A stretch of 37,891 bases of DNA, from the NCBI GenBank assembly GCA_000320545.1, contig ADNK01000673.1, positions 1-37,891 of the forward strand. Reading direction: 5' to 3'. The number at the start of each line of letters is the position of its first letter. Within the stretch, counting starts at the first letter, position 1. Source of the stretch: Bigelowiella natans CCMP2755 (Eukaryota; Protista; Cercozoa). This document shows, piece by piece, positions 1,864-22,656 of the stretch. Position numbers and translations under genes: made by a program. The notes beneath the pieces are model-generated. The model saw nothing but the letters and a program-made list of their open reading frames with translations. It made no database searches and had not been told where the DNA came from.

Positions 1864-2390
1864 TGCCTCGGTTCAGAACTCTCTCTCTGTTGTTGTTGTT
1901 GTTGTTGTTGTTGCGGTTTGTTTTTGTTGTTGTAATTTTTGTAATTTTGTAATTGTTTTAATTGTTGCGATGGAGAAGTGGTTTCCTACTTGATAATTAT
2001 TCAAACGAAAAACAACGTCGATTTCCTAGGATTTCTTCAAAATGTCGTCGAAGCTTTCTCTTTTTCAACTGAAGTTAATCAAAAATAGAGATTTTCTCCT
2101 GAAATTCTGCATTTTGTTGTTGTCGCAAGATCCCAATGTGACACAACATAAACAATATTTCTGAATAGTTGTAGCTGGAAGGTCTGGATAGTGTTGAGGA
2201 TGTGACGAACTAACTTTTGTTTCCTGCTCCTCGGGAAATCTCTCGAACAAAAAAGTGTTTTTTCCGAATTTTCACATTGCACGGGGATTAATGCTAAATT
2301 TGATTTTCGCCGGCATTGACAGCAGATCTGCTGCAACAAAACACGGCTTCGTTTGTGCTGTGAAAAGTTGGCACATGGTTCGTTCACAAA

Positions 2391-3026
2391 ATGAAGTCAC
2401 CCATTCATGCGAAGCTGATGACCTTTGTTTACACATTGCAGCTGCAGCATGGTTGCTACTACGTGGGACAGTCTGACAATCCATATAAACGATTCAAAGA
2501 GCACAAACGCGGAGATGGCTCGGACTGGACATGCCTTCACAAACCCATTTGCATCATGCACATGGAAATGGTCCCGCAGTCGAAGGCATCAACCGAAGAG
2601 GACCGAATCACAGAGGAGTTGATGGGAGAGAAAGGCATTGAAAAAGTGAGAGGGGGGACTTATTCTCAGATTAATTTACCTCTTCATTGTGTGAAAACTT
2701 TAAGGGCCAAGATGGTTCACAAAGAAAACGCCTGTTTCACGTGTGGTTCGCCCAGCCATTTTGCAAAGGAATGCCCGAATTGCCAGAGATACGGGAGAAA
2801 CAGCCACACAGAAAAAGATTGCTATGCTAAAATTCATCTGTTTGGTGACAGTATTGAAACTGAGGACGAATCTGAGGAAGAATCTGAGGACGAATCTGAG
2901 GAAGAATCTGAGCGCAGAAGGCAGAGGCTAACAAACAGATTTCATCAGAGGTGGAACAGAGGTCAGAGAAGCCCAAGAACCTCATCCACAAAAAAAAAGA
3001 ATTTTAAGTCGAGATTTTATCGGTGA
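2391..3026 (+). CDS. Intronless GIY-YIG nuclease with C-terminal CCHC zinc knuckles and an acidic/basic tail
   Basis: FVYTLQLQHGCYYVGQSDNPYKRFKEH (GIY-YIG motif with conserved R and H), GSDWT, EEDRIT (candidate catalytic Glu), VRGGTYS. Knuckle CFTCGSPSHFAKEC plus a degenerate second knuckle CQRYGRNSHTEKDC. The true start may be the Met at 2418. Confidence 0.85.
   Translation: MKSPIHAKLMTFVYTLQLQHGCYYVGQSDNPYKRFKEHKRGDGSDWTCLHKPICIMHMEMVPQSKASTEEDRITEELMGEKGIEKVRGGTYSQINLPLHCVKTLRAKMVHKENACFTCGSPSHFAKECPNCQRYGRNSHTEKDCYAKIHLFGDSIETEDESEEESEDESEEESERRRQRLTNRFHQRWNRGQRSPRTSSTKKKNFKSRFYR
2862..2912 (+). repeat. 12-bp tandem repeat GAGGA(C/A)GAATCT x4 encoding EDES/EEES
   Basis: Directly visible: gaggacgaatct gaggaagaatct gaggacgaatct gaggaagaatct gag. 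Confidence 0.9.
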
Positions 3027-3900
3027 TTCCAGTGTGCATTTAATTTTGTAGCACTGTTTTTGTCCTGCAACCTGCAACGACCGCACTTGTTGCAAGGGCA
3101 TGCATGCATCGCTGTTCACCTTCAAGACTTAACACCAGGTGAACCATGCTAGCATGGCTTCTTTTTGACGGCCATCCCACAGTTTGCTGTCTTGTAGGCA
3201 TGAACTGCACCTTGATGGATCATTCTAGCATTCGTCTTCTTGTTCTTCTTCTTGTTCTTGATCGTCTTCTCATTCCATGCATGCCAGCATGGGGCACTTG
3301 CGTCATCGTCGTGCAGCACCACTAGACCAGCTAGCCAGCAACAACAATGCAAAATTGTCGAACACCACGAAGAGTTGGCACTTCTGATGATCCTTTCAGT
3401 GACACCATTCTGGCATTGATGTTGTTTCATGCATTCATTCGTTCAAGTTGCACGGAAAGTTTTCATTCACGTGTCAAATAAATCACCCGCAACCCGTAAC
3501 CATCTTCATTGTGTGTCTGTCATGCTCTGTCACTGTTCGACTACTGGACTATTCGAGCAGTCGAGTAGCAATTTTCAAGATCACAAAGTCAACAACAGCC
3601 AACTGGACAAATGCAAACTGTGGCATGCTAGCTTGCGCCCGTGGATGACATCTGCATGCCAATGTCAGATTGCAACGCAGTACTATTTTGCGATGTGTAA
3701 ATTAGGATCCATGCCATCTGTGGCAAGGCAACTTAATTACCTACTTCTATTCTCTGGTCGTCGCCTGCCGACATTGTTGTACCGCTTCTTTTCCCATCAA
3801 TGGTAGAAGATGCTCTTTTACTGCGTTGATTTTGATGATCTTCCATATCGTCAACCTAATTTTGATTGAATAAGTACACGTCTACTCAAAATATCATTTC

Positions 3901-11400: not shown

Positions 11401-13402
11401 TGTTCAGGATAGTTTGATGACCTTCGACTTCAGTGTTTATGCTGAGAAGTCTGGGAATTCCAGGACTAAACTTTACTCTTGCCTTCTGCTTCTTTATTTC
11501 CTTCAAATGTAAATGTTTAAATCCCGATTTTTGAAGTATCAAAATTGTATTCTACATTAGCTCCAAAAGCAGCGAAATTTCTGAAACCTTTTACTAATTT
11601 AAGATGGAATATAAATTTGAGTAAGAATGACTCCATCCACTTCCAAATAATTTTAGATAAACTCACCCAGTTTTCCAATATTTCCTTCTGCTTTCACATT
11701 GGAGGTAGGAACATCAGGCTTGGGAGATTCTGGAGGTACCTGCAACGAGTACTCCTACAGTATTCGTTCAAAGAGGGTTGTGCAAGTAGGTACCGAGTAT
11801 ATTGCAAAAGTTCGAATATAAACTTCTTTGTAGTCCTCGGTCATGTCTGGGTTTTTAATCGTAACAACTCTGATTTGGGAGGAATATAAATATTTAGACC
11901 CTTAGAGACAATAATTTGTTCGATTATAATACCCTTCCTTAATCGGTAAATTTGCCCCCCATGGTTGCAACGTCTTTCTTATTAGTTTTCCAACGCTCTC
12001 TTTTTCGAAGGTTAATACTCGATGAAGGGCTGGCTTCTTCTGTTTCTTCTTTTTCCGTTTGATTTTTTGCTTCATTCTTGCGTTAACTTTTGGATCAAGA
12101 AGTTTTTTGTTGTAGAGCTCAAGAATATAAGGGCATGGAACGTACATAAGATGCCTTCGAAACCTGAATAAATTTGCTAAACCTCAACGTTGTATATTAA
12201 AGAAAAGGAAGATGATCTCACTCAAAAGTTTTTCCAAACACGTGCTCGATCAAGTGGCGGGACACTACAGCGTTCACAATTTCCTGCGCAACTGATTTGG
12301 TGCCACATGTCCAGTTCTTGCATATCCACTTTTAGATATTTATCATTAGACTAATCATTGAGTATCGTCAAGATATCACAACCTCGAAGATGTATGCTCC
12401 GGAGAACAAAGGATTATGGGGCTCATTACGAGGAAAATTCAACGGTGAAGGAGCCTCGAGACAAATTCTAACTAACATCCTGCAAATACAGTAGCACAAC
12501 AGCACAACTTGAACACTGTGTATCTATCGCTCTAGTATGAATTTTTACGAAGTTAGCTTGATTCCGCTTAGCTGCCCGAATCTCTGAACTGTAGAATCGA
12601 TCTTCATTGTATGCTGAAATTATTTTGTTTTAAAAACTAAGTTTGATGGTAACAAATCGAATTAGTCCACCGGTAGTAACAAAATGTGAGCATCGCCAGG
12701 ATTGCCGTCGCCATTTGTGGCTATCTCTCCCACAAGCATCTCATCATAAAGCCTGCAATTTCCAAACAATGTTTTTAGCTGAATCGACTATTTAACCATT
12801 TAAATGTTGTACACAAACGAATACCTTTCTCCTGTGATTCTGTTGTAGATTGAAAAAGTGTTGAAAATCCGGCACTGCATTCTGTCATTTGATTGTGAAG
12901 GGGCAGGTTATTCGTCTTTTCAGATCCCGATTTATGCTATCTACTTACTCTAAGATTTCTGTCTTTGACTTGAATTTCTTTTTGCCATCATCGTTCAATT
13001 TACTTTCTTGCTTCTTGCACCCATTGAAAGCACTTATGTGTAGAATTTCCATCCCTAGAATGTGCACATTGCAAATTGTTCTGAGAATTTGTATGGGCGT
13101 CGCGAACTGGTATTTCCTACCATTGTTTTTGAACGATTGAAGCACTTTTGCCTTTAGATCTCTGATGTGGTCACTGACGTGTGCGCTAATTGCCACATGA
13201 AACCTTTTAATTGACGAATCAACAATTGAATCAAAGCACTTATGAGCGGAAATGAATCGCACTGATTTTCGTTGAGTGGGAAAATGTGGCATCTAATATC
13301 CAAATCGTCAGCTGCGCCTGCCCCTTTTGTGAGGTCTTGGATGGTTTGACGTGCTGAGAACGAGCCGAAACGCACTTCCTCAACGGCAACACCATCCGCC
13401 AT
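5494..13402 (-). CDS. Large multi-exon gene (possibly more than one): DEP-like domain, probable C2 domains and a C-terminal PRT_C/MCTP-like membrane region
   Basis: Spliced exons near 12100-12480 read FSGAYIFE|WICKNWTCGTKSVAQEIVNAVVSRHLIEHVFGKTF..FRRHLMY (DEP-like). YDGWFKL...MEIRLEV near 7100-7260 resembles a C2 C-terminus. YQWARDILMWKS and ERLQSLMLWRDP followed by hydrophobic helices match the PRT_C signature of MCTP proteins. The full exon chain was not resolved. Confidence 0.6.
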
Positions 13403-14466
13403 TGTTAAAAATGTGAGAGTCTTGTCAGAACGCCAAATCACCTGCATTTTTCACAATCCATGGTGCATTTGGAAGTCGCAGATGAGAGTCGGAGGTGAGC
13501 ACTACAAACAAACGAGTGTCCAAAATCCAACGACAACGAGGCGCAATGGGGGACTGCGACACGCTCTTGAAATCAAAGTTGGGCTTGGGTGGATTGTGAA
13601 CCACGATGAATGATGCTCCGTTGACACGTGGACATTTTGTTGTTGCAGTCGCTTTCCACCTAGCCATGATGTCCACCATGCTGCCCACATTTTCATGCAG
13701 ATTCCACAGGGCTGCGACAGATGGCCCACAACACAGCTCGGTCGAACCTGTGACAATTTTCATGTTTGAGCAAGCGTGAACTTTTGAAGGCGATTTGAAG
13801 CTTCAGGGAGCAGTGAGAAAGTCACTTCCTTCGTGTTCGCACGCAGCTGGGATTTTTCGCGTGCGTGTGGTCAGCGTGCGCGCACGCACTTGCGCACCAA
13901 AAACACTGCTGCAGCTCTGCACATTGTTTGCAACTCTCAGCAAACTTCTTGCATTTTTCGCAAAAACATCGTTTTTGGCCTTCGAAAACGTGACAACGAA
14001 ATGCAGGTTTTCACGGAAAGTGACACGTTTTTGGTCGTTTCTCGGTCAAAAATTGCATTTTGATCGACGCTCGGCCGAGCTGCAGATGTGTTCTGCATGT
14101 GATCACGTTCATCAATGTGAAGACGCGCTGCGCGCACGCGCACGCGCACGACCAGCCTTTTGCGCTGCAGCCAAACGTTGCCGGGTTTGTGTGAATGCTG
14201 TTGCAGAGTCGTCAGCACTGGCTAGAGCAGCCTAGCAGTGCTGGAGTGGCGCACTCAGGTGCCACATGGGTGGTGCGATGCTCGTTCAGCGTGCGCGCGT
14301 CAAGTGATTCAGCAATTGCTGGCACCCGCATCGTGTGCACTTTGCATGACCACGTCAGGATGACAAATGAAAAAGTTGCTCTTGTTCATCACACCTGTTC
14401 GACGCTTTGTGGTGAGCACTAGCTCGTTCATGTGTACGTGACGTGTGAGACGGATGTGATGAAGAA

Positions 14467-17400
14467 TCAAATTTTTTCAATGGTCATCCTGATGTAGCTG
14501 TGCAATGCAGCGGCTACAGCGCTAATGTTGCATCTGTTGGTTTCTGCCACAATGTGTTTCATGCATTTGAAAGCGTCCTCATGCGACCGATGTTGCCGCG
14601 CACTGCGCGCAGCAGTTCTGGATTCAATTTCAGCCTTTGTCAACCGGTTCGTGTCGTCGTTGCGATTCATGATCGCGCGCATTTGATTGCGCAATCTGAT
14701 TTGTTCTCGACCATGTGTTGGACATTGCAGGAGATGATCCATGTCCTTCAGGATGCCACATGCATCGCACGTGGCATCTTCCTCTGTGCATTGTCCACGT
14801 GACAGCATGAATTTGCCAAGATTGCCGACACCACAGATGGCGCGCATCCATGATGTAGCAACACTTGGAAGTTTCAGTTTGATGCCGGTGATCGAAGATG
14901 ACGGGAGGAAACCAAGATTCTTGAGATGCACAGCGCGCAATGAATCATTGGACCATTCCTCTTCGAATTCGTTGAAAGCACAAGATTTCATCACCTTGTG
15001 ATGTTTTTTCAGTTCTTTTTTCAGCGCCTCTGTTGTCGCCAAAACGGTGGGCAATTCGTCACCTAACAAGTCGTCAGTGATCGATTTGAGCCGTCGAAAC
15101 AAGGATGCTTTGTTCCACGTGTGTGTGGGCACATCAATCCACGATGTGCCATCCAACATTTTTCGATTTTCAATGATGAAGCCATAACTGCTCCAATCAT
15201 TTATTCCCTCATGGATTTGAGGACCGCTGCCTGTGTCGATCCATGCGTTAGTGCGTAACCATGATTTAGCACACTGCACTTTAGTTTGATATCGGGGTGG
15301 CAACGTGCCAGTGAGGACGTGGGGGACGTCGTTGGAGATGGATCCAGGTAATCCCAATATACGTTTCAGGGTTTGGGATTCCATGGAATCCATCTGTTTT
15401 ATTCGTATGTTTCTTCGTGATCTCCATATTGGAGCAGCGTATCTGCTGGATGCAAGGAACCATGATTTGTAAAATTTCAGTCTGACGTTTAGCGGTACAA
15501 GGTGTCTGGAATAACACAACCTTAACAAAAACCTTCGCTTCTTTTGCAATCTCAGGTGAGAAGCAAGAGCATGTTTTTCAAAGGTTAATTTGTTGTCGAA
15601 GATTAGTCCGAGACATCTGCCGCTGTCGACTCTTTTTATTTTTCCTTGGAGATTGAGAGAGATGTTCCAGGAGGTTTGGTGTCGGTGGGCTTTATTTCTT
15701 TTGTCAATTATAAGGTACCCGCTCTTGTCCCCATTGAATCGCATCCGCCATTTCATGCACCAGTCCGTCATTTGGTTTAGGTCGGCCTGGATATCATCTT
15801 GCATTTTCCCCCATCGGTTTGGCGAAAACAATTTGTAGGGGGTAACGTCGTCACAGTATATTTGGAAATCTGTGTTGGTAATATGTTCGTAAATGTCGTA
15901 ATAGGTTATGAAAAGGAAACAGCTGAGAGATGATCCTTCGGGGACGCCGCTCCCAAGGTTCATGTGCTCAGAGAGAGTATTGCCAAATCTGAATCTGGCG
16001 GTACGATCTCTGAGCCAGTCGTCGATCCACAGCAATAGCGAGCCTCGTATTCCGTATTTGTCATGTAACTTGCGTATCATGCCGGAATGCCAGGCTTTTG
16101 GATAAGCTTTAGAGGCATCTGTAAACAACAGGATGGCTGCAAGCTTTTTGTTATATACTCCATCCTCGATTGACTGCGTCATCTTTGTGAGTGCAGTTTC
16201 GCAGGATCGATTTTTCATGAATGCATACTGATGTATGCTAATGTTTTTGGGGGGTATAGCTTCGCGGAGCCGTTGTTCTATTAGTTTGTCTTCTATTTTA
16301 GAAGCTATTTGTAGGAGAGAAATCGTTCTCCCGTTGAGAGGGGTGTTAAGTTCTTTGTTGGCCTTAGGGATGAGACAAAAAATGGCCGCCTTACGTGAGC
16401 CATCTCGGGTACCCCATCTATATGACATGTTGAATGTAGCTAACCACAGTTGATGGAGTTTCTTGCTTTTTTTCAACATGTTTAGGTGAACACCATCATC
16501 GCCAGGAGACTTGTACGGTGATGCTTTGTTGATCACGTTTCTTAGTTCATGCATAGAAAAATCTCTGTTGTATGAATTAACACTGTAGATCTTTTTGTCT
16601 TCATTTTTCCTGAAGGTATTTCTCCAGGCCTCAGTTTCAGCGTGAAAGGTTCGATTTTTCTTGTCTGACGGGTGTGGTTTGTAGATATGTTTCCATTTGG
16701 CAACACACACTTCACATTTTTTTTCTTCAGAGGTTTCGCCATCGAGTCCTCCGAATTTATCCCGCCCTCTGGATTTTTGGAATAATTTGTACAGCATTCT
16801 GGTATGATTCCCATTGTTGTATTTTTCGAAGCGAGACAAGAATAATTGCCATGCTTCGTACTGAAGGGTTTCGGTGGTTCGTTCAAGTTCGGCGTTGATT
16901 TCTTGGATCTTGGTTTCTAATAATTTTCTCTTCCGAAATTTCCTTTCGTGTTTCAAGGATCTAAATAATTTTTCTTGTTGATCTTTGATGGATTTATATT
17001 TTTTGTCGTTTTGGTATGGCTTGATTGGACTCCAACGTTGTCGTTTTTTTGGTGTGCAGCTATTAAAAGCTTTTCCGGTAAAGTCCCAGAACCAGCGTTC
17101 AAGCTTTTTTGCATCAGCCTCCGATTGAACGTTTAGTATGCGCTGGTGCAAGCGTTCGGTAATATTATTCAATTTTTCGTCAAATCGTTTTACATCGAAT
17201 TTGTCGATGTCATATATCATTGGTGAAGTCTGTTGATGGATTGCCACAGGTTTTCCAAAGTGGATACCGAAATGGTCACTTGTCGTGGTGTTGGCCATCT
17301 GATATTCTATTTGGTGTGCGAAGTTTGAGGAGCACAGCACATGATCAAGTGTGCTTGTGTTTCCTTTTCTGAAATATGTGGCTTCCCCAGGGTTGACCAT

Positions 17401-17961
17401 CATGATGTTGTTATCCGACAACCACTGGTGTAGGTATCTGCCACGTCTATCTTCTTGGTTTCGGACATCGTAGGTGGAGTGTTTAGCATTAGTGTCCCCC
17501 ACGATGATGTATTTTTTCCATTTCTGTTTCCGAATGATGTTCATTATGAAATCTAATCTCTCTTTCAGATGTGAGATGTTTTGGTGTGGCTGGAGGTACA
17601 CCATTATGACAGCATATTTTTCAATGCTGTGTATGAAAAAACTAATATCGTAATTGTTATCATCTATAGGTATATGAATTATATCTGTGTTCTTTTTTCT
17701 TAATCCAAAGCTCCCAGAGGAGCCGCTCGTCCGAATCACTTCGTATCCCGCTGGAGGATGCAGCCTCTCCGATTCTTTGAGGCGGCCTTCCCCAAACCAG
17801 GCGAGTTCGATGTTGTTGGTGGTTATCATTTCTTTTAACATATTATATCTTCTATTTATTCTTTGCCTGCCTTGTTCAGTTCCGTTTTTACTGCGTATGT
17901 TTTGGTAGTAGTAGGGGAGATTCAAATGATTAACCATATTTACGTGTCCTTCTGTTTTCAT
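14467..17961 (-). CDS. LINE ORF2: apurinic-like endonuclease, reverse transcriptase and C-terminal CCHC finger
   Basis: APE: YYQNIRS, IIVGDTNAKH, ATYFRKGNTSTLDHVLCS, TSDH. RT: KSPGDDG, LIPK, RTISLL, QYAFMKNRSC, DASKAY, GVPEGSSLS, YCDD, FNGDKS, RCLGLIFDNKLTF. C-terminal CDACGILKDMDHLLQC. No RNase H motif recognised. Confidence 0.95.
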   Translation of the reverse strand: MKTEGHVNMVNHLNLPYYYQNIRSKNGTEQGRQRINRRYNMLKEMITTNNIELAWFGEGRLKESERLHPPAGYEVIRTSGSSGSFGLRKKNTDIIHIPIDDNNYDISFFIHSIEKYAVIMVYLQPHQNISHLKERLDFIMNIIRKQKWKKYIIVGDTNAKHSTYDVRNQEDRRGRYLHQWLSDNNIMMVNPGEATYFRKGNTSTLDHVLCSSNFAHQIEYQMANTTTSDHFGIHFGKPVAIHQQTSPMIYDIDKFDVKRFDEKLNNITERLHQRILNVQSEADAKKLERWFWDFTGKAFNSCTPKKRQRWSPIKPYQNDKKYKSIKDQQEKLFRSLKHERKFRKRKLLETKIQEINAELERTTETLQYEAWQLFLSRFEKYNNGNHTRMLYKLFQKSRGRDKFGGLDGETSEEKKCEVCVAKWKHIYKPHPSDKKNRTFHAETEAWRNTFRKNEDKKIYSVNSYNRDFSMHELRNVINKASPYKSPGDDGVHLNMLKKSKKLHQLWLATFNMSYRWGTRDGSRKAAIFCLIPKANKELNTPLNGRTISLLQIASKIEDKLIEQRLREAIPPKNISIHQYAFMKNRSCETALTKMTQSIEDGVYNKKLAAILLFTDASKAYPKAWHSGMIRKLHDKYGIRGSLLLWIDDWLRDRTARFRFGNTLSEHMNLGSGVPEGSSLSCFLFITYYDIYEHITNTDFQIYCDDVTPYKLFSPNRWGKMQDDIQADLNQMTDWCMKWRMRFNGDKSGYLIIDKRNKAHRHQTSWNISLNLQGKIKRVDSGRCLGLIFDNKLTFEKHALASHLRLQKKRRFLLRLCYSRHLVPLNVRLKFYKSWFLASSRYAAPIWRSRRNIRIKQMDSMESQTLKRILGLPGSISNDVPHVLTGTLPPRYQTKVQCAKSWLRTNAWIDTGSGPQIHEGINDWSSYGFIIENRKMLDGTSWIDVPTHTWNKASLFRRLKSITDDLLGDELPTVLATTEALKKELKKHHKVMKSCAFNEFEEEWSNDSLRAVHLKNLGFLPSSSITGIKLKLPSVATSWMRAICGVGNLGKFMLSRGQCTEEDATCDACGILKDMDHLLQCPTHGREQIRLRNQMRAIMNRNDDTNRLTKAEIESRTAARSARQHRSHEDAFKCMKHIVAETNRCNISAVAAALHSYIRMTIEKI

Positions 17962-19372
17962 ATGCCCTGAATCGTAGGTAGCTGCCCTGATATGTGATTT
18001 GTGAATTCAGCAGTTTGGTGGCCTCTTCATGCGAGTGCACAAACAGCTGAAGTAGAGGGCCCTTGCCGAGAGGTTCTATTGCTGCGACTTTTACATCGAT
18101 GTTGGTTTCGATTATCTGCTTGATGATTCCAATTCGTGTTGATTTTTCCTGCTCGTTAGGTCCCAGCCTTGGGCCTCTCAGAACTACAGAGTGCTTACTT
18201 GGCCTTGACTTAGCTGCTCTGACTGTGGTCACTAATCCAAAGAGTGAGGGAAGGAATGATCCTTGTCCTAACTGATGTTCGGTGTTAAGCAGATCCAGGT
18301 AAGCATCCATCTTAGATTCTCTGGAGCCTTTGAAGAACACTTTTAGGTGGGTTTTATTCCTAGATTTGAATTGGATTCCTTGAAAGTCCTTCCCATATTT
18401 CGCTTGGAAAGCTACGTGCATTTGGAATTCGTTCAATCCTAGTGCATCGATCAACTTTGGAGTTATTTTGGACAGGTTTTTCCCAATATCTGGAACATCT
18501 TTTTTTTCACTGGATGGGTTCAAATCCTCTACGTTCTTTCCGGCTAGGCATTTAGTCTCTTCTTCCTCGGTGTTAACTTCTGTCAGTGTGTCGCGGTTTT
18601 CATCCCTCGGATCTGCTGTGTTTGTTTCCTCACTTGTTGGTTCGTTGGCATGTTTTTTTTTGCCAGTGAGAACAGTGCGACATGGGTCGCCGGAGGCCAT
18701 AATGGCGCCCCCCGCTTGCAGCATGGCTTTTTTGTCAAGTTCCAATATGAGCACGTTCTGTTTATACTTCCGGTTGTATTTCCTTTGATTCCTGGCGTGA
18801 CTTTTTGGAACTTGCCAACTCTGGCTATTCTTTCGCTCAGCTAGTCTTTGTACTTCTGCTTCAGGATATTTATCTCGACCATGAGGTTCATCAGCGCGTG
18901 ATGAGGTTGTGACACTAGCGTAAGTTCTCGAGGTCCGTTGCATCGAGGAGGGTTGAGCTTCCATTGTGCCATTCTTCTGATGTTCCTTGATATAAGTCAG
19001 TTCTTCTTCAAGTTTCAGTAATTTGTTTTTAAGCCCAGCGTTTTCCTCCTGCATGTCTTTTTGATCTTGCTGCAATTGTTGTTGTTTCTCATCAACTAAC
19101 TGGACCATTGTGGTCAGCATTTCACACAATTTTTTCATTGTGTTCCACTGAGGAGTTTCTTTGCGTTCCATTGTTGCAGACAGTGTTGAAGTAACTTCGC
19201 GAAGGCATTGAGACAGATCATGACTTTTCCTATCAGAGCCACAGTCGTCATCATTGCATTCTGAATCGAGATCCAACGTTGCGTGTTGGTTCTTTTTGTG
19301 CTTTCTTCCCTTTTTGGGTGTCTGGTGCTTGTTGTTGCCACGCGCGCTGCGCGTGATCATCACGGTGGGCAA
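17930..19372 (-). CDS. LINE ORF1 (gag-like nucleic-acid chaperone): basic N-terminus, coiled coil, RRM-like C-terminus
   Basis: Lies directly upstream of ORF2. Heptad-rich segment LQQDQKDMQEENAGLKNKLLKLEEEL, RTYASV motif, C-terminal SVVLRG...EEATKLLNSQITYQGSYLRFRAY. The track start is TTG; the first ATG (MITRS) is near 19360. Confidence 0.8.
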   Translation of the reverse strand: MPTVMITRSARGNNKHQTPKKGRKHKKNQHATLDLDSECNDDDCGSDRKSHDLSQCLREVTSTLSATMERKETPQWNTMKKLCEMLTTMVQLVDEKQQQLQQDQKDMQEENAGLKNKLLKLEEELTYIKEHQKNGTMEAQPSSMQRTSRTYASVTTSSRADEPHGRDKYPEAEVQRLAERKNSQSWQVPKSHARNQRKYNRKYKQNVLILELDKKAMLQAGGAIMASGDPCRTVLTGKKKHANEPTSEETNTADPRDENRDTLTEVNTEEEETKCLAGKNVEDLNPSSEKKDVPDIGKNLSKITPKLIDALGLNEFQMHVAFQAKYGKDFQGIQFKSRNKTHLKVFFKGSRESKMDAYLDLLNTEHQLGQGSFLPSLFGLVTTVRAAKSRPSKHSVVLRGPRLGPNEQEKSTRIGIIKQIIETNIDVKVAAIEPLGKGPLLQLFVHSHEEATKLLNSQITYQGSYLRFRAYENRRTRKYG

Positions 19373-19769
19373 TATTTCACTTGTGCGCGGCTATGAGTCC
19401 GTTTGAAATAGCATTTTGTAGATGCAGCATTATTGTAGTACATGCGTACAACGGGCGCCTGCGACGTTGCAACAATGCCACGCTGTTTACAAAAGGACTA
19501 GACACGATATGCTGGTGGCGCATGACAATGACAGTGCGTATGCGAGCCATTCACGCACACACATGCACAGCATTTCTTTGCTGATTGTTGCATGGTTGCC
19601 ACACATGCTAGCATGCAATTCTGGCAATGAAAACATTTGAAAGCGAGTGGATGATCATTGCTGACTTGCGTGAGTATCACATCCTGACATCATTCTCTAG
19701 ATTCAGGCTGCAAATGAAAGAGCAGTGCCATCACCGATTGTGATTGTAGCTGCAACAGTGGACGGCTCC

Positions 19770-22656
19770 TCAGAGTTGACACGTGTCACAATCCTTTTCA
19801 TTGTCCCACAAAGAGCCCCACAGCTTCATGACTTTCGTTGTCTTCATGTCCATCAAGCTGCGTAGCTGTGAGATTTCCAAGTCACCTTGGGTACATGCAT
19901 CTCCAGAGCAGAAGGAGACTGCGTGCTGTCGAGGTAGCTCCATGGCGCGCTTGAGCTGCCATGGCCCTGCGCCGCCTTCACGGTAGCAAACATAGGTGCT
20001 GTGGAGCATCGAGACTGGGAAATCATCCGGGACAGACTGATTGGCGAAGTCTTGCGACAACGAGATTCGGAATGAGCTTGGATACGACAGAAGCTTGGCA
20101 AGGGGTGGGGTCAGGATGTCCACATCAAGCCCCTTGTATTCCCGCGATGCGAATTTGACTAATGAAGCTGTAGTAACATCGCGATACTGCTCAAATGCAA
20201 GCTCCTTGCACACAGCAGGTGCTGGAGAAGCGGAAGCTATCTTGGTATCAATGACGGACTGAATGAGCCCCAACGTATGGGAGTGCGACCGCAGAGGATC
20301 GAAGCTTCTCTTGAAGAGCGAAGACAGCGAACGCATAGCGGCCTCGAGTCTACCAGTATCCTCTTGAGAGGCCTTTCTGCCCATCCGCGAATGCAAGAAA
20401 CGTGTATGGCCTATCATGGATAGCGCTTGACGGGAAAGTGAGAATGGCAAGTCGTCGATAGCGGCTCCAAGCTCATTCTTGACTTCGTCGAGCCCCTCAT
20501 GCGATAGCCAGAACTGTCCCGTCTTGCCATCCCGTAGCTTCACGGAGTCAGCCGCAGCGTGAATCATACGCGTAGGGACGTCACTCACGAGCATCACGTC
20601 CTGGTGCGACTCCAGGGCCTCCATTGAAGCCTCGTAGGCTTTTCGCAGCATATTCTCGGACAACTCCGTGGCATCACTCACCAGGGAAGTCGACTCATCA
20701 AGGAATTCAACGTGGCCGTGACAATTTAGGTAGTCCCCGACGGATCCGATGACTTTGTTCATGACCATGAGCTGCTGCTTGTAGACAGAGACGTAGCTGG
20801 ACACCTGCGCATGCATGTGATTCCAGAGCTGCGAGAGTCCCAAGAGGGAGCCCTGAAGGCTCTGGCGTTCCATCTTAGCACGGTTCACCAACACCTCGTT
20901 TGTAAGCAGGTCGAGCTTCCAATTTAAGGCGCTGGATACAGACATCTCTCCCCGCTTGCTGAGTCCCTGCACATCGCGATAGAGGCGCTGGCCCCTTTTT
21001 TTGAGGTCATGAATGCCGGTATGAATGTCGTCGAGCAGTACCAAACGCACCCCGATCGTGCTATTGATTCTTGCAGAGGTCTCTCGGACCTGGGTACGGA
21101 TGAGGCTGGCGCCAAGTCCTTTGCTGCGAGACTGACTCTGACGCTGATTGGAAAGCGCATGTGCCCTTCCTAGAATAGTATCCAGTCTCTCCAGACTTCG
21201 CACGAGCGTCTCGCTCGCATCCCGTGGATTTTGACTGGATTTCAGCGCAGAGTGGGTCGATGCGATGAGCTCGATTGCCTTGCTGACGCCGCCCTCATAC
21301 TCCTTCGCCGCATTCAAGTCGACTTGGTCCAGGGTAGTAGTAGCAGCGGCTACTTCTGGCTGTAGATATTTAGCAAGAGTCTTTGAAAGCTTGGCGTGCA
21401 GGGCGTGTGGCGATGGGATGGCCATATCGGCATGTCGTCGAGTAGCATCATCTTAGCCTTGTTTTTAGCGTTGATCTTTGCCACCTCGGTCTCCATTTTG
21501 TTCATAACGACCTGCGAATAGTAGTTCATGAGCATGTCGGAGTTCTTCACAATATTCTGGTTGGACTTCGCAATGTTCCTGATCACGGCGCTCGTTCCCG
21601 CCTTCACCGCATCCTTGACGCAGTGGAGGTCGCACAATATCCTGAGCACACTCACTTGGAGCGGGTTGCAGTCTTCATAACTCTCTTTACTGTCTTTAAA
21701 CTCTCGGTACTTCGCGGGGACTTCAGCCAGTCCCTCCCACATCTCGGACGCTAGGTCAGCAACGCCTTCGCACATATCTCCGTACTTAATAGACAAACCG
21801 AAGAAGGGACCTGCAAGGCCACCCCCTCCTCCCACCTCTTTGTCCGGAAGAAACTTGCATCCAAACTTCCCAATGGCGGTGCCAAGCTTCATACTCGCCT
21901 TGACGGCGCCAAGGGCAAGGAGATACGTATGCATCTCGTAGTCTCGTTTCAGATCCTCTGAATGGCATTCGTTCATTGTTTCGTAATTGAGGCCAGGGCC
22001 CCCATCCTTGCCGTGGCGCTTCCATGTAGTGCTTGCAAGGAGGGCGCAGGCACTGCCTTTGTCGAATATCTCTGTGGCCTCCTTGAATTTATCATTCTCG
22101 ATCGCGGCACATCCCTCGCTGTACTTGGGCTTCTCTGTCTTGAACTTGATGAGCGTTGGCTTCTGCGGAACGGAGGCGCCAAGGCCATTTGGGGGCGGCA
22201 TAACACCCCCGGTCATTCCTTTGCCAGACATGACTCCCAGCTCGATAACGGAGAAAGGCAGGCCCTTCTTGCTCTCGAGCAGCCAGTCCACAGAGAATGG
22301 ATGCTCAGCATGTCGGTGAGGCTGCGTGCACTTTCGGTCGCCGCCACTGGCGGGGATCAGGCACCAGGAGTTAAGACTCTTGTCGAAGAGCAGCTCCGAC
22401 CTTTTCACTGTCGCTACTTCCGGCTTGGGATATGGTGTAGGGTATGAGGTCGGATAGTTCGTTGGGTACCTGAGGCAGCAGAGAGTCGTCATCGATATGA
22501 TTGAGGACGCCATATGTCGTGTCTATCGCTTTTGGCTCATCTGTACTCTTCCACGCCACGATCATCATCATCATCATCATCGCTATATAGAAACATTAGT
22601 ATTACCGTGTAGGCTGCTTGCTCGGGTAACGCGTTGGGTATGCTGTGATATGGTGA

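Follow-up and report, generated by a model that had tools for sequence, protein, structure and literature searches.

Two-stranded loss of TA dinucleotides in a LINE family of Bigelowiella natans, likely through TpA-specific hypermutation

We have investigated the loss of TA dinucleotides in a LINE retrotransposon of Bigelowiella natans CCMP2755 contained in contig ADNK01000673.1, the whole 37,891 nucleotide stretch analysed being referred to as the window. On both strands, the family to which this element belongs has lost TA to TG and CA. The TpA-specific hypermutation of B. natans is the likely cause, and the scars in the tail of the element were probably fixed in a source that continued to produce copies, a reading to which we assign a probability of approximately 0.78. 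The scars are a real feature of the LINE and provide a further example of a process that has been described in a preprint (Mettrop et al., bioRxiv 10.64898/2026.01.13.699255). While the mutation process itself is already known, the copy-to-copy evidence on a multicopy LINE and the spliced antisense RNA across it are new.

The element has the confirmed organisation of an APE-type LINE, with an APE endonuclease and a reverse transcriptase in ORF2 and with ORF1 located upstream:

17930..19360, minus strand: ORF1, open, approximately 476 aa, upstream of ORF2 with a 35-base overlap with the ORF2 start
14467..17964, minus strand: LINE ORF2, 1165 aa, open, with Met at 17964; the stop-to-stop frame is 18006-14467
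Domains within ORF2: APE-type endonuclease, aa 118-234; reverse transcriptase, aa 533-752; C-terminal Cys/His motif, aa 1066-1081

ORF2 matches Pfam families PF14529 (E 1e-17) and PF00078 (E 7e-18), and all 11 of the 11 motifs checked in the endonuclease, reverse transcriptase and C-terminal Cys/His regions are present and align with intact relatives. A Pfam search gave no match for ORF1, across which multicopy depth persists to the 19175-19441 bin. 5'-truncated copies are evident from a depth gradient rising toward the 3' end and from 3' fragments among the gene models. An Rfam search of 13000-20000 detected no family, and 19340-19800 was rejected as an older LINE fragment after blastn and tblastn within the window returned no match. 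Judged by its sequence, the ORF2 copy belongs to an EN-RT LINE that is apparently intact, and its named relatives are gene models of Bigelowiella natans: sister copies of 81-99% identity bear Bigna1 or Bigelowiella natans gene-model names, and homologue searches also recovered two intact outgroup subfamilies with 68% and 78% identity. The closest relative outside the family, P0119, is 43% identical, other distant ones being approximately 22-32% identical. Residues ~940-1156 of P0119 form an insert of ~220 residues, RNase H-like by eye and negative in a Pfam search, which the family does not have. Pieces of the LINE that are 94-99% identical (P0044, P0048, P0064) are filed under a Prorocentrum lima transcriptome, which may reflect contamination or transfer. 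Sister DNA was sought in metagenome and viral contigs, with 40 and 4 pattern matches, respectively, and 0 confirmed in either set.

Loss of TA in the DNA is a far stronger signal than the tyrosine count and extends from the element into its surroundings:

13300..15180, no strand: TpA-erased domain from a change-point fit, covering the last ~730 bases of the element (the ORF2 tail) and ~1.1 kb of 3' flank
13568..14368, no strand: older low-copy repeat in the 3' flank, 3.5-11x flank depth, almost TA-free
19000..19770, no strand: milder TpA depletion across the start of ORF1 and the 5' flank, rho 0.26 at 19000-19400 and 0.32 at 19500-19770

Across its 1881 bases the domain retains 12 TA (rho 0.10), against 1.52 for TG and 1.71 for CA, and its part beyond the element includes the flank repeat as well as some single-copy flank, both TA-erased. 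The ORF2 tail at 14467-15250 has 8 TA in 784 bases compared with 148 in 2714 bases for the remaining ORF2 (p=3e-9), and in this tail TG and CA reach 1.49 and 1.79 of expectation. The rho of TA is 0.60-0.72 in neighbouring host genes and 0.66-0.72 in the remainder of ORF2. Dependence of TA loss on copy number along the element was considered and is unsupported, as no monotonic link with copy depth was observed over 19 bins (Spearman -0.23, p=0.35), the bins including one at 54x that is untouched, one at 61x that is erased and flank at 1x that is erased. Elsewhere in the window, a second TpA-poor island occurs at 2190-3680 (rho 0.30, TG 1.44, CA 1.55), surrounding an intronless-looking GIY-YIG and zinc-knuckle ORF (2364-3026) with ATG7 on one side and the next host gene on the other; it is possibly another foreign insert struck by the same process.

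Both the context and the strand of the changes were resolved at silent sites and between copies. In the tail of the window element, silent sites give an NTA:NTG ratio of 2:19, compared with 28:33 upstream (p=0.003), and an NNT|A:NNC|A ratio of 2:42, compared with 56:118 upstream (p=9e-5); in the controls outside TA the A:G ratio is flat (p=0.72) and T:C shifts in the opposite direction. Three dead sister copies (P0047, P0057 and P0118, pooled; named, heavily diverged gene models, three of the 15 compared), trimmed by eye, with DNA changes deduced from predicted proteins and with the window as reference at sites where it still has TA, are changed at 50 of 139 TA-transition sites and at 20 of 687 others. 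This holds for both directions, sense A>G occurring at 30/73 TA sites versus 14/445 elsewhere (p=2e-18) and sense T>C at 20/66 versus 6/242 (p=3e-10), with the AA context at background (7/256) and transversions at TA in 2/250. Reverse changes at TG and CA were observed once in 133 sites (C>T at CA 0/52, G>A at TG 1/81); as TpA is lost rather than gained, fungal RIP was rejected as the cause. At the protein level, the 26 Tyr compared in these copies have become Cys in 15 cases and His in 8, with 3 kept (Cys versus His, p=0.21). A second subfamily responds similarly, the 17 Tyr of four named gene models reading as 6 Cys, 5 His, 2 kept and 4 other, and its 99%-identical full-length members show few differences, mostly of the same type. 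Among 14 compared members of a third subfamily (the P0071 group, from metagenome sources) a single Tyr>Cys/His change and no pattern was detected.

The DNA contigs agree with this symmetry. A>G and T>C are the leading differences between the contigs and the window and occur in equal measure, with 102 and 116 places, respectively, in run X5 and 88 and 108 in run X4. Among the best-supported 40 of 584 DNA variants, only 11 lie at TA, TG or CA in the expected direction and 18 lie within the flank repeat. Both outcomes were observed at a single site:

14716..14717, plus strand: one site with two outcomes; the window reads TG, and CA accounts for ~38% of the depth of DNA contigs (462/1215 in run X5) and is read in an RNA contig

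TG versus CA at this site are the two outcomes expected of one ancestral TA. Combined, the silent sites, the sister copies, the struck flank and the de novo DNA changes reported in the preprint bear out the portion of the original prediction which proposed that both DNA strands are subject to a TA-specific process, as opposed to editing of the sense RNA; its further proposal, that the changes arose in this copy after insertion, is unsupported. That TA to TG or CA changes make no stop from a sense codon, as had also been stated, follows from the genetic code.

The prediction was built on tyrosine, and the gap it described is real, residues 8-927 containing 39 Tyr as against 1 for residues 928-1165, numbered from the Met at 17964 (Fisher p=0.002). 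The codons are also as claimed, the Cys of RCLG being TGT (15615-15613), the His of CPTH being CAT (14715-14713) and the Cys of NRCN being TGC (14532-14530). Five motifs had been offered as sites of lost tyrosine, of which CPTH and NRCN are scars while RCLG, ALHS and KCMKHI contain residues present family-wide:

15613..15615, minus strand: Cys784 of RCLG, family-wide, no lesion of this copy
14713..14715, minus strand: His1084 (CAT) of CPTH, sense T>C; the two outgroup subfamilies have Tyr here and an older sister copy has Cys
14530..14532, minus strand: Cys1145 (TGC) of NRCN, sense A>G; Tyr in the outgroups, His in other copies

The RCLG Cys is found in 21 of 22 aligned relatives and is thus not a lesion; its position lies ~430 bases outside the TpA-poor domain. 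The corresponding 'YLG' column is variable among 140 distant LINE reverse transcriptases (F 60, Y 57, L 10, I 5, C 3, other or gap 5) and is A in the 43% relative. Conservation is similarly high for the His of ALHS (65/70 aligned rows) and for the Cys, Met and His of KCMKHI (70/71, 69/71 and 70/71 rows, respectively). With redundant cluster members included, the CPTH column reads Y 48, H 15, C 4 and N 1 in 68 rows and the NRCN column Y 44, H 13, C 12 and F 1 in 70 rows. Intact relatives are likewise Tyr-poor in residues 928-1165, with 3-5 Tyr (1 versus 5, p=0.22), and therefore only two conserved Tyr are lost in the tail, most of the gap being a family trait. Relatives thus share RCLG and the Tyr-poor tail, contrary to what was predicted of unmutated copies, which is not the case for CPTH or for the strand symmetry, as both strands are affected. 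His1084 follows the final Cys of the C-terminal Cys/His motif by three residues. The occurrence of opposite residues, His versus Cys, among copies is the outcome expected if one ancestral TA had been resolved either way. Within the window itself the protein-level signal is weak, TA-explainable differences from the two outgroup subfamilies comprising 6 of 20 in the tail and 5 of 52 upstream (p=0.06).

The scars are shared between copies. His1084 is present in 7 of 9 and Cys1145 in 7 of 8 named gene models covering these sites, and 7 named gene models combine Thr1083, His1084 and Cys1145, none being identical to the window; P0118 has the opposite outcome at both Tyr sites (Cys and His). The same outcome in 7 gene models makes common inheritance likely, as independent hits would split approximately evenly. 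Contigs of 525-1205 bases with 0 letters differing from the window have depths of 275-286 in run X5 and 729-825 in run X4, compared with flank depths of 17-20 and 43, respectively. The window-identical long contigs are therefore at ~14-19x flank depth, corresponding to about 15-19 near-identical long copies, with the provisos that depth is a rough guide and not a copy number and that contigs collapse rare variants. Sharing of the tail across the long copies is based on partial contig tables together with proteins. RNA contigs over 14590-15582 differ from the window by 4 letters. The suggestion that the element looks intact but is dead is consequently unsupported, given the same residues in 7 gene models, the 11/11 motifs and the depth of the window-identical contigs: this copy is probably not dead, and rather than inactivating it the scars were likely established in a source element which continued to multiply. 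The 1.1 kb flank part of the domain, which is partly single-copy, is unexplained by pure inheritance. Loss of TA in the flank implies either that the element landed in already struck DNA, beside the older repeat at 13568-14368, or that this locus was struck in place together with its flank and is itself the source.

The 3' end of the element has further features, and RNA is apparently transcribed across the element from the opposite strand:

14352..14495, no strand: element 3' end (14455-14495) and an inverted copy, 79% alike (14352-14393), facing across ~60 bases inside the TpA-erased domain
16407..19178, plus strand: antisense to the LINE, eight GT..AG joints seen in the RNA contigs of one RNA run, splice ends checked

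The 3' terminal stretch at 14369-14635 exceeds 1000x flank depth and has many loose ends, a depth which suggests a short, high-copy, likely non-autonomous family with the LINE 3' end. Compared by eye, the loose-end consensus of the other copies has TA where the 3' terminus in the window has TG. A contig joint 14541>19600 occurs at single-copy depth in both DNA runs, with the flank contig letters before 19543 unmatched to the window there, and may stem from an allelic difference or from a short element at another site. We infer spliced antisense RNA over the LINE from the eight plus-strand joints, which were among the RNA joints listed, 44 more joints lying beyond these. Their depth is 100-270, the longest ORF on that strand is 134 aa, and joints of the neighbouring host gene in the same RNA run read CT..AC. 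As a lead, either the inverted 3' end or the antisense RNA could be a source of double-stranded RNA. Contigs of a marine metatranscriptome (run X16, share <=0.1) cover the neighbouring gene only.

Among the papers listed by literature searches, the Mettrop preprint alone describes this signature (10.64898/2026.01.13.699255). That preprint reports that, in Bigelowiella natans, integrated DNA of NCLDV and virophages is hypermutated by TpA>TpG/CpA changes. Its mutation-accumulation lines acquired, in two integrated viral regions, ~6e-7 mutations per site in each generation, of which nearly all were TpA>TpG or CpA; the de novo changes occurred in single-copy silent DNA, and the process is reported as ongoing with a de novo rate raised roughly 1000-fold (10.64898/2026.01.13.699255). 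TpA-poor coding sequences are described as enriched in reverse transcriptase and endonuclease-reverse transcriptase Pfams, and deamination to inosine by an ADAT2-like DNA deaminase is the hypothesis put forward (10.64898/2026.01.13.699255). The portion of the preprint text available has 0 occurrences of 'retrotranspos' or 'non-LTR', and it states that sites of >2x average depth were left out of the mutation counts, a filter which leaves multicopy LINEs unscored (10.64898/2026.01.13.699255). Some of the gene models considered here may be listed in its supplementary tables S6-S11. The LINE signature matches the preprint process in motif, direction and strand symmetry.

In the mechanism we favour, the adenine of TpA in genomic DNA would be altered, by ADAT2-like deamination to inosine according to the preprint proposal, and fixed as G at replication. 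As TA is identical on both strands, the result would be either TG or CA, converting Tyr to Cys or His, Ile (ATA) to Met or Thr and Leu (TTA) to Leu or Ser and never creating a stop. Copies struck in the EN-RT core would die with an open frame, as P0047, P0057 and P0118 may have done, whereas the lineage of the present copy would have been struck in its last 730 bases, for the most part silently or with tolerated effect, and would have amplified afterwards with its core preserved. A bolder extension, which we advance tentatively and consider doubtful, is that an active LINE lineage outlived a TA-targeted defence of the algal genome and disseminated its scars, because TA loss at its 3' end, the most repeated part, was tolerated and inherited until no target was left, an escape by target depletion, with the antisense RNA and inverted 3' end marking RNA-guided targeting.

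A variant of the favoured explanation, possible rather than probable, is that this locus was struck in place round its 3' junction and gave rise to the sister copies. The domain is single and continuous over flank and element and contains the inverted 3' end, which could form a hairpin or double-stranded RNA, the window is the majority contig across most of the element body, and the TG at its 3' terminus as opposed to TA in the other copies is also in keeping with such a source. Against this, the flank has its own older repeat, possibly struck separately, the window is unlike all depth at 16300 and 16587, at 14716-14717 the alternative outcome is found in an RNA contig, and a target-site duplication by which to date the insertion was looked for and not found, an exact search for 7-16 bases yielding one 7-mer only, although mutation may have removed it. 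An unlikely reading is that this copy acquired its mutations once inserted and is now inactive, its sisters being alike through gene conversion or trans mobilisation by the ORF2 of another subfamily. His1084 does lie beside the Cys/His motif where both outgroup subfamilies keep Tyr, and the same species has intact relatives of another subfamily (P0004, P0001 cluster). However, RCLG is family-wide, the catalytic motifs agree with those of intact relatives, TA in the core is at the host-gene level (rho 0.66-0.72), and there are ~15-19 near-identical long copies and a 3'-rising depth gradient, the latter typical of retrotransposition; in addition, His is observed at the NRYN site in near-identical full-length copies of another subfamily, indicating that the site tolerates change.

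The remaining alternatives concern the origin of the changes. TA is the hottest WA site of polymerase eta, whose WA>WG motif is known from somatic hypermutation, so that an error-prone polymerase of this type could be the mutator in place of a deaminase; this is quite improbable, as the AA context is at background (7/256) and transversions at TA number 2/250. ADAR-like A-to-I editing of the element RNA, copied in by reverse transcription, would benefit from the antisense RNA as a supply of double-stranded RNA, and the 5'-U preference of ADAR fits TA according to the preprint (10.64898/2026.01.13.699255). Reverse transcription of sense RNA yields sense A>G only, yet T>C is approximately as frequent (20/66 versus 30/73), the single-copy flank is struck too, and the preprint reports the same changes de novo in single-copy silent DNA (10.64898/2026.01.13.699255). 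RNA editing is thus largely refuted by strand symmetry and retains a very small probability. Equally hard to sustain is an origin in ordinary TpA avoidance and the amino acid composition of the C-terminal domain. TpA is under-represented generally, with rho 0.6-0.72 in host genes, and the tail of relatives is Tyr-poor too, so that this explanation accounts for most of the raw Tyr count; it is refuted for the DNA signal by the silent-site tests with their controls, by rho 0.10 over 1.9 kb including non-coding DNA and by the context-specific differences between copies.

The TpA process is recent in print and rests on two viral regions, with its action on transposons inferred from dinucleotide screens. 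The LINE family supplies direct copy-to-copy evidence in two subfamilies and offers a natural series, from intact to saturated copies, on which the roles of silencing, antisense RNA and position in targeting can be tested. For annotators, dead copies stay open because the process never makes stops and are therefore called as genes or fused into host models, where they are recognisable by Tyr>Cys/His changes; conversely, such scars are no proof that a copy is dead. P0002, P0003 and P0019 have TA-erased LINE tails fused to host gene models (kinesin, LCCL-domain protein), an expected annotation artefact.

In relation to known systems, the element resembles APE-type non-LTR retrotransposons in having ORF1, an ORF2 with endonuclease and reverse transcriptase, a C-terminal Cys/His motif and 5'-truncated copies, and differs in that the nearest outside relative (43%) has the ~220-residue insert missing from this family. 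RIP of fungi is dinucleotide-specific, two-stranded and aimed at mobile DNA, leaks into flanks and proceeds by C>T. The LINE process is similar in dinucleotide specificity, in affecting both strands of mobile DNA and in reaching the flanks; in contrast, RIP makes TA from CA and TG and creates stops whereas the LINE process removes TA and makes none, and TpA loss in the LINE shows no monotonic link with copy depth. Hypermutation of retroelements by ADAR or APOBEC is also host-driven and produces context-specific transitions, but leaves a one-strand signature on the element, unlike the two-stranded signature of the LINE, which extends to flanking DNA. The closest parallel in kind is the viral hypermutation of B. 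natans itself which shares with the LINE the TpA>TpG/CpA change, both strands, the species as judged by gene-model names, and the striking of mobile DNA with host genes spared. The two differ in that the preprint describes de novo changes in two viral regions, whereas the evidence for the LINE is copy-to-copy, and in that the LINE is transcribed and recently amplified, with its scars likely inherited.
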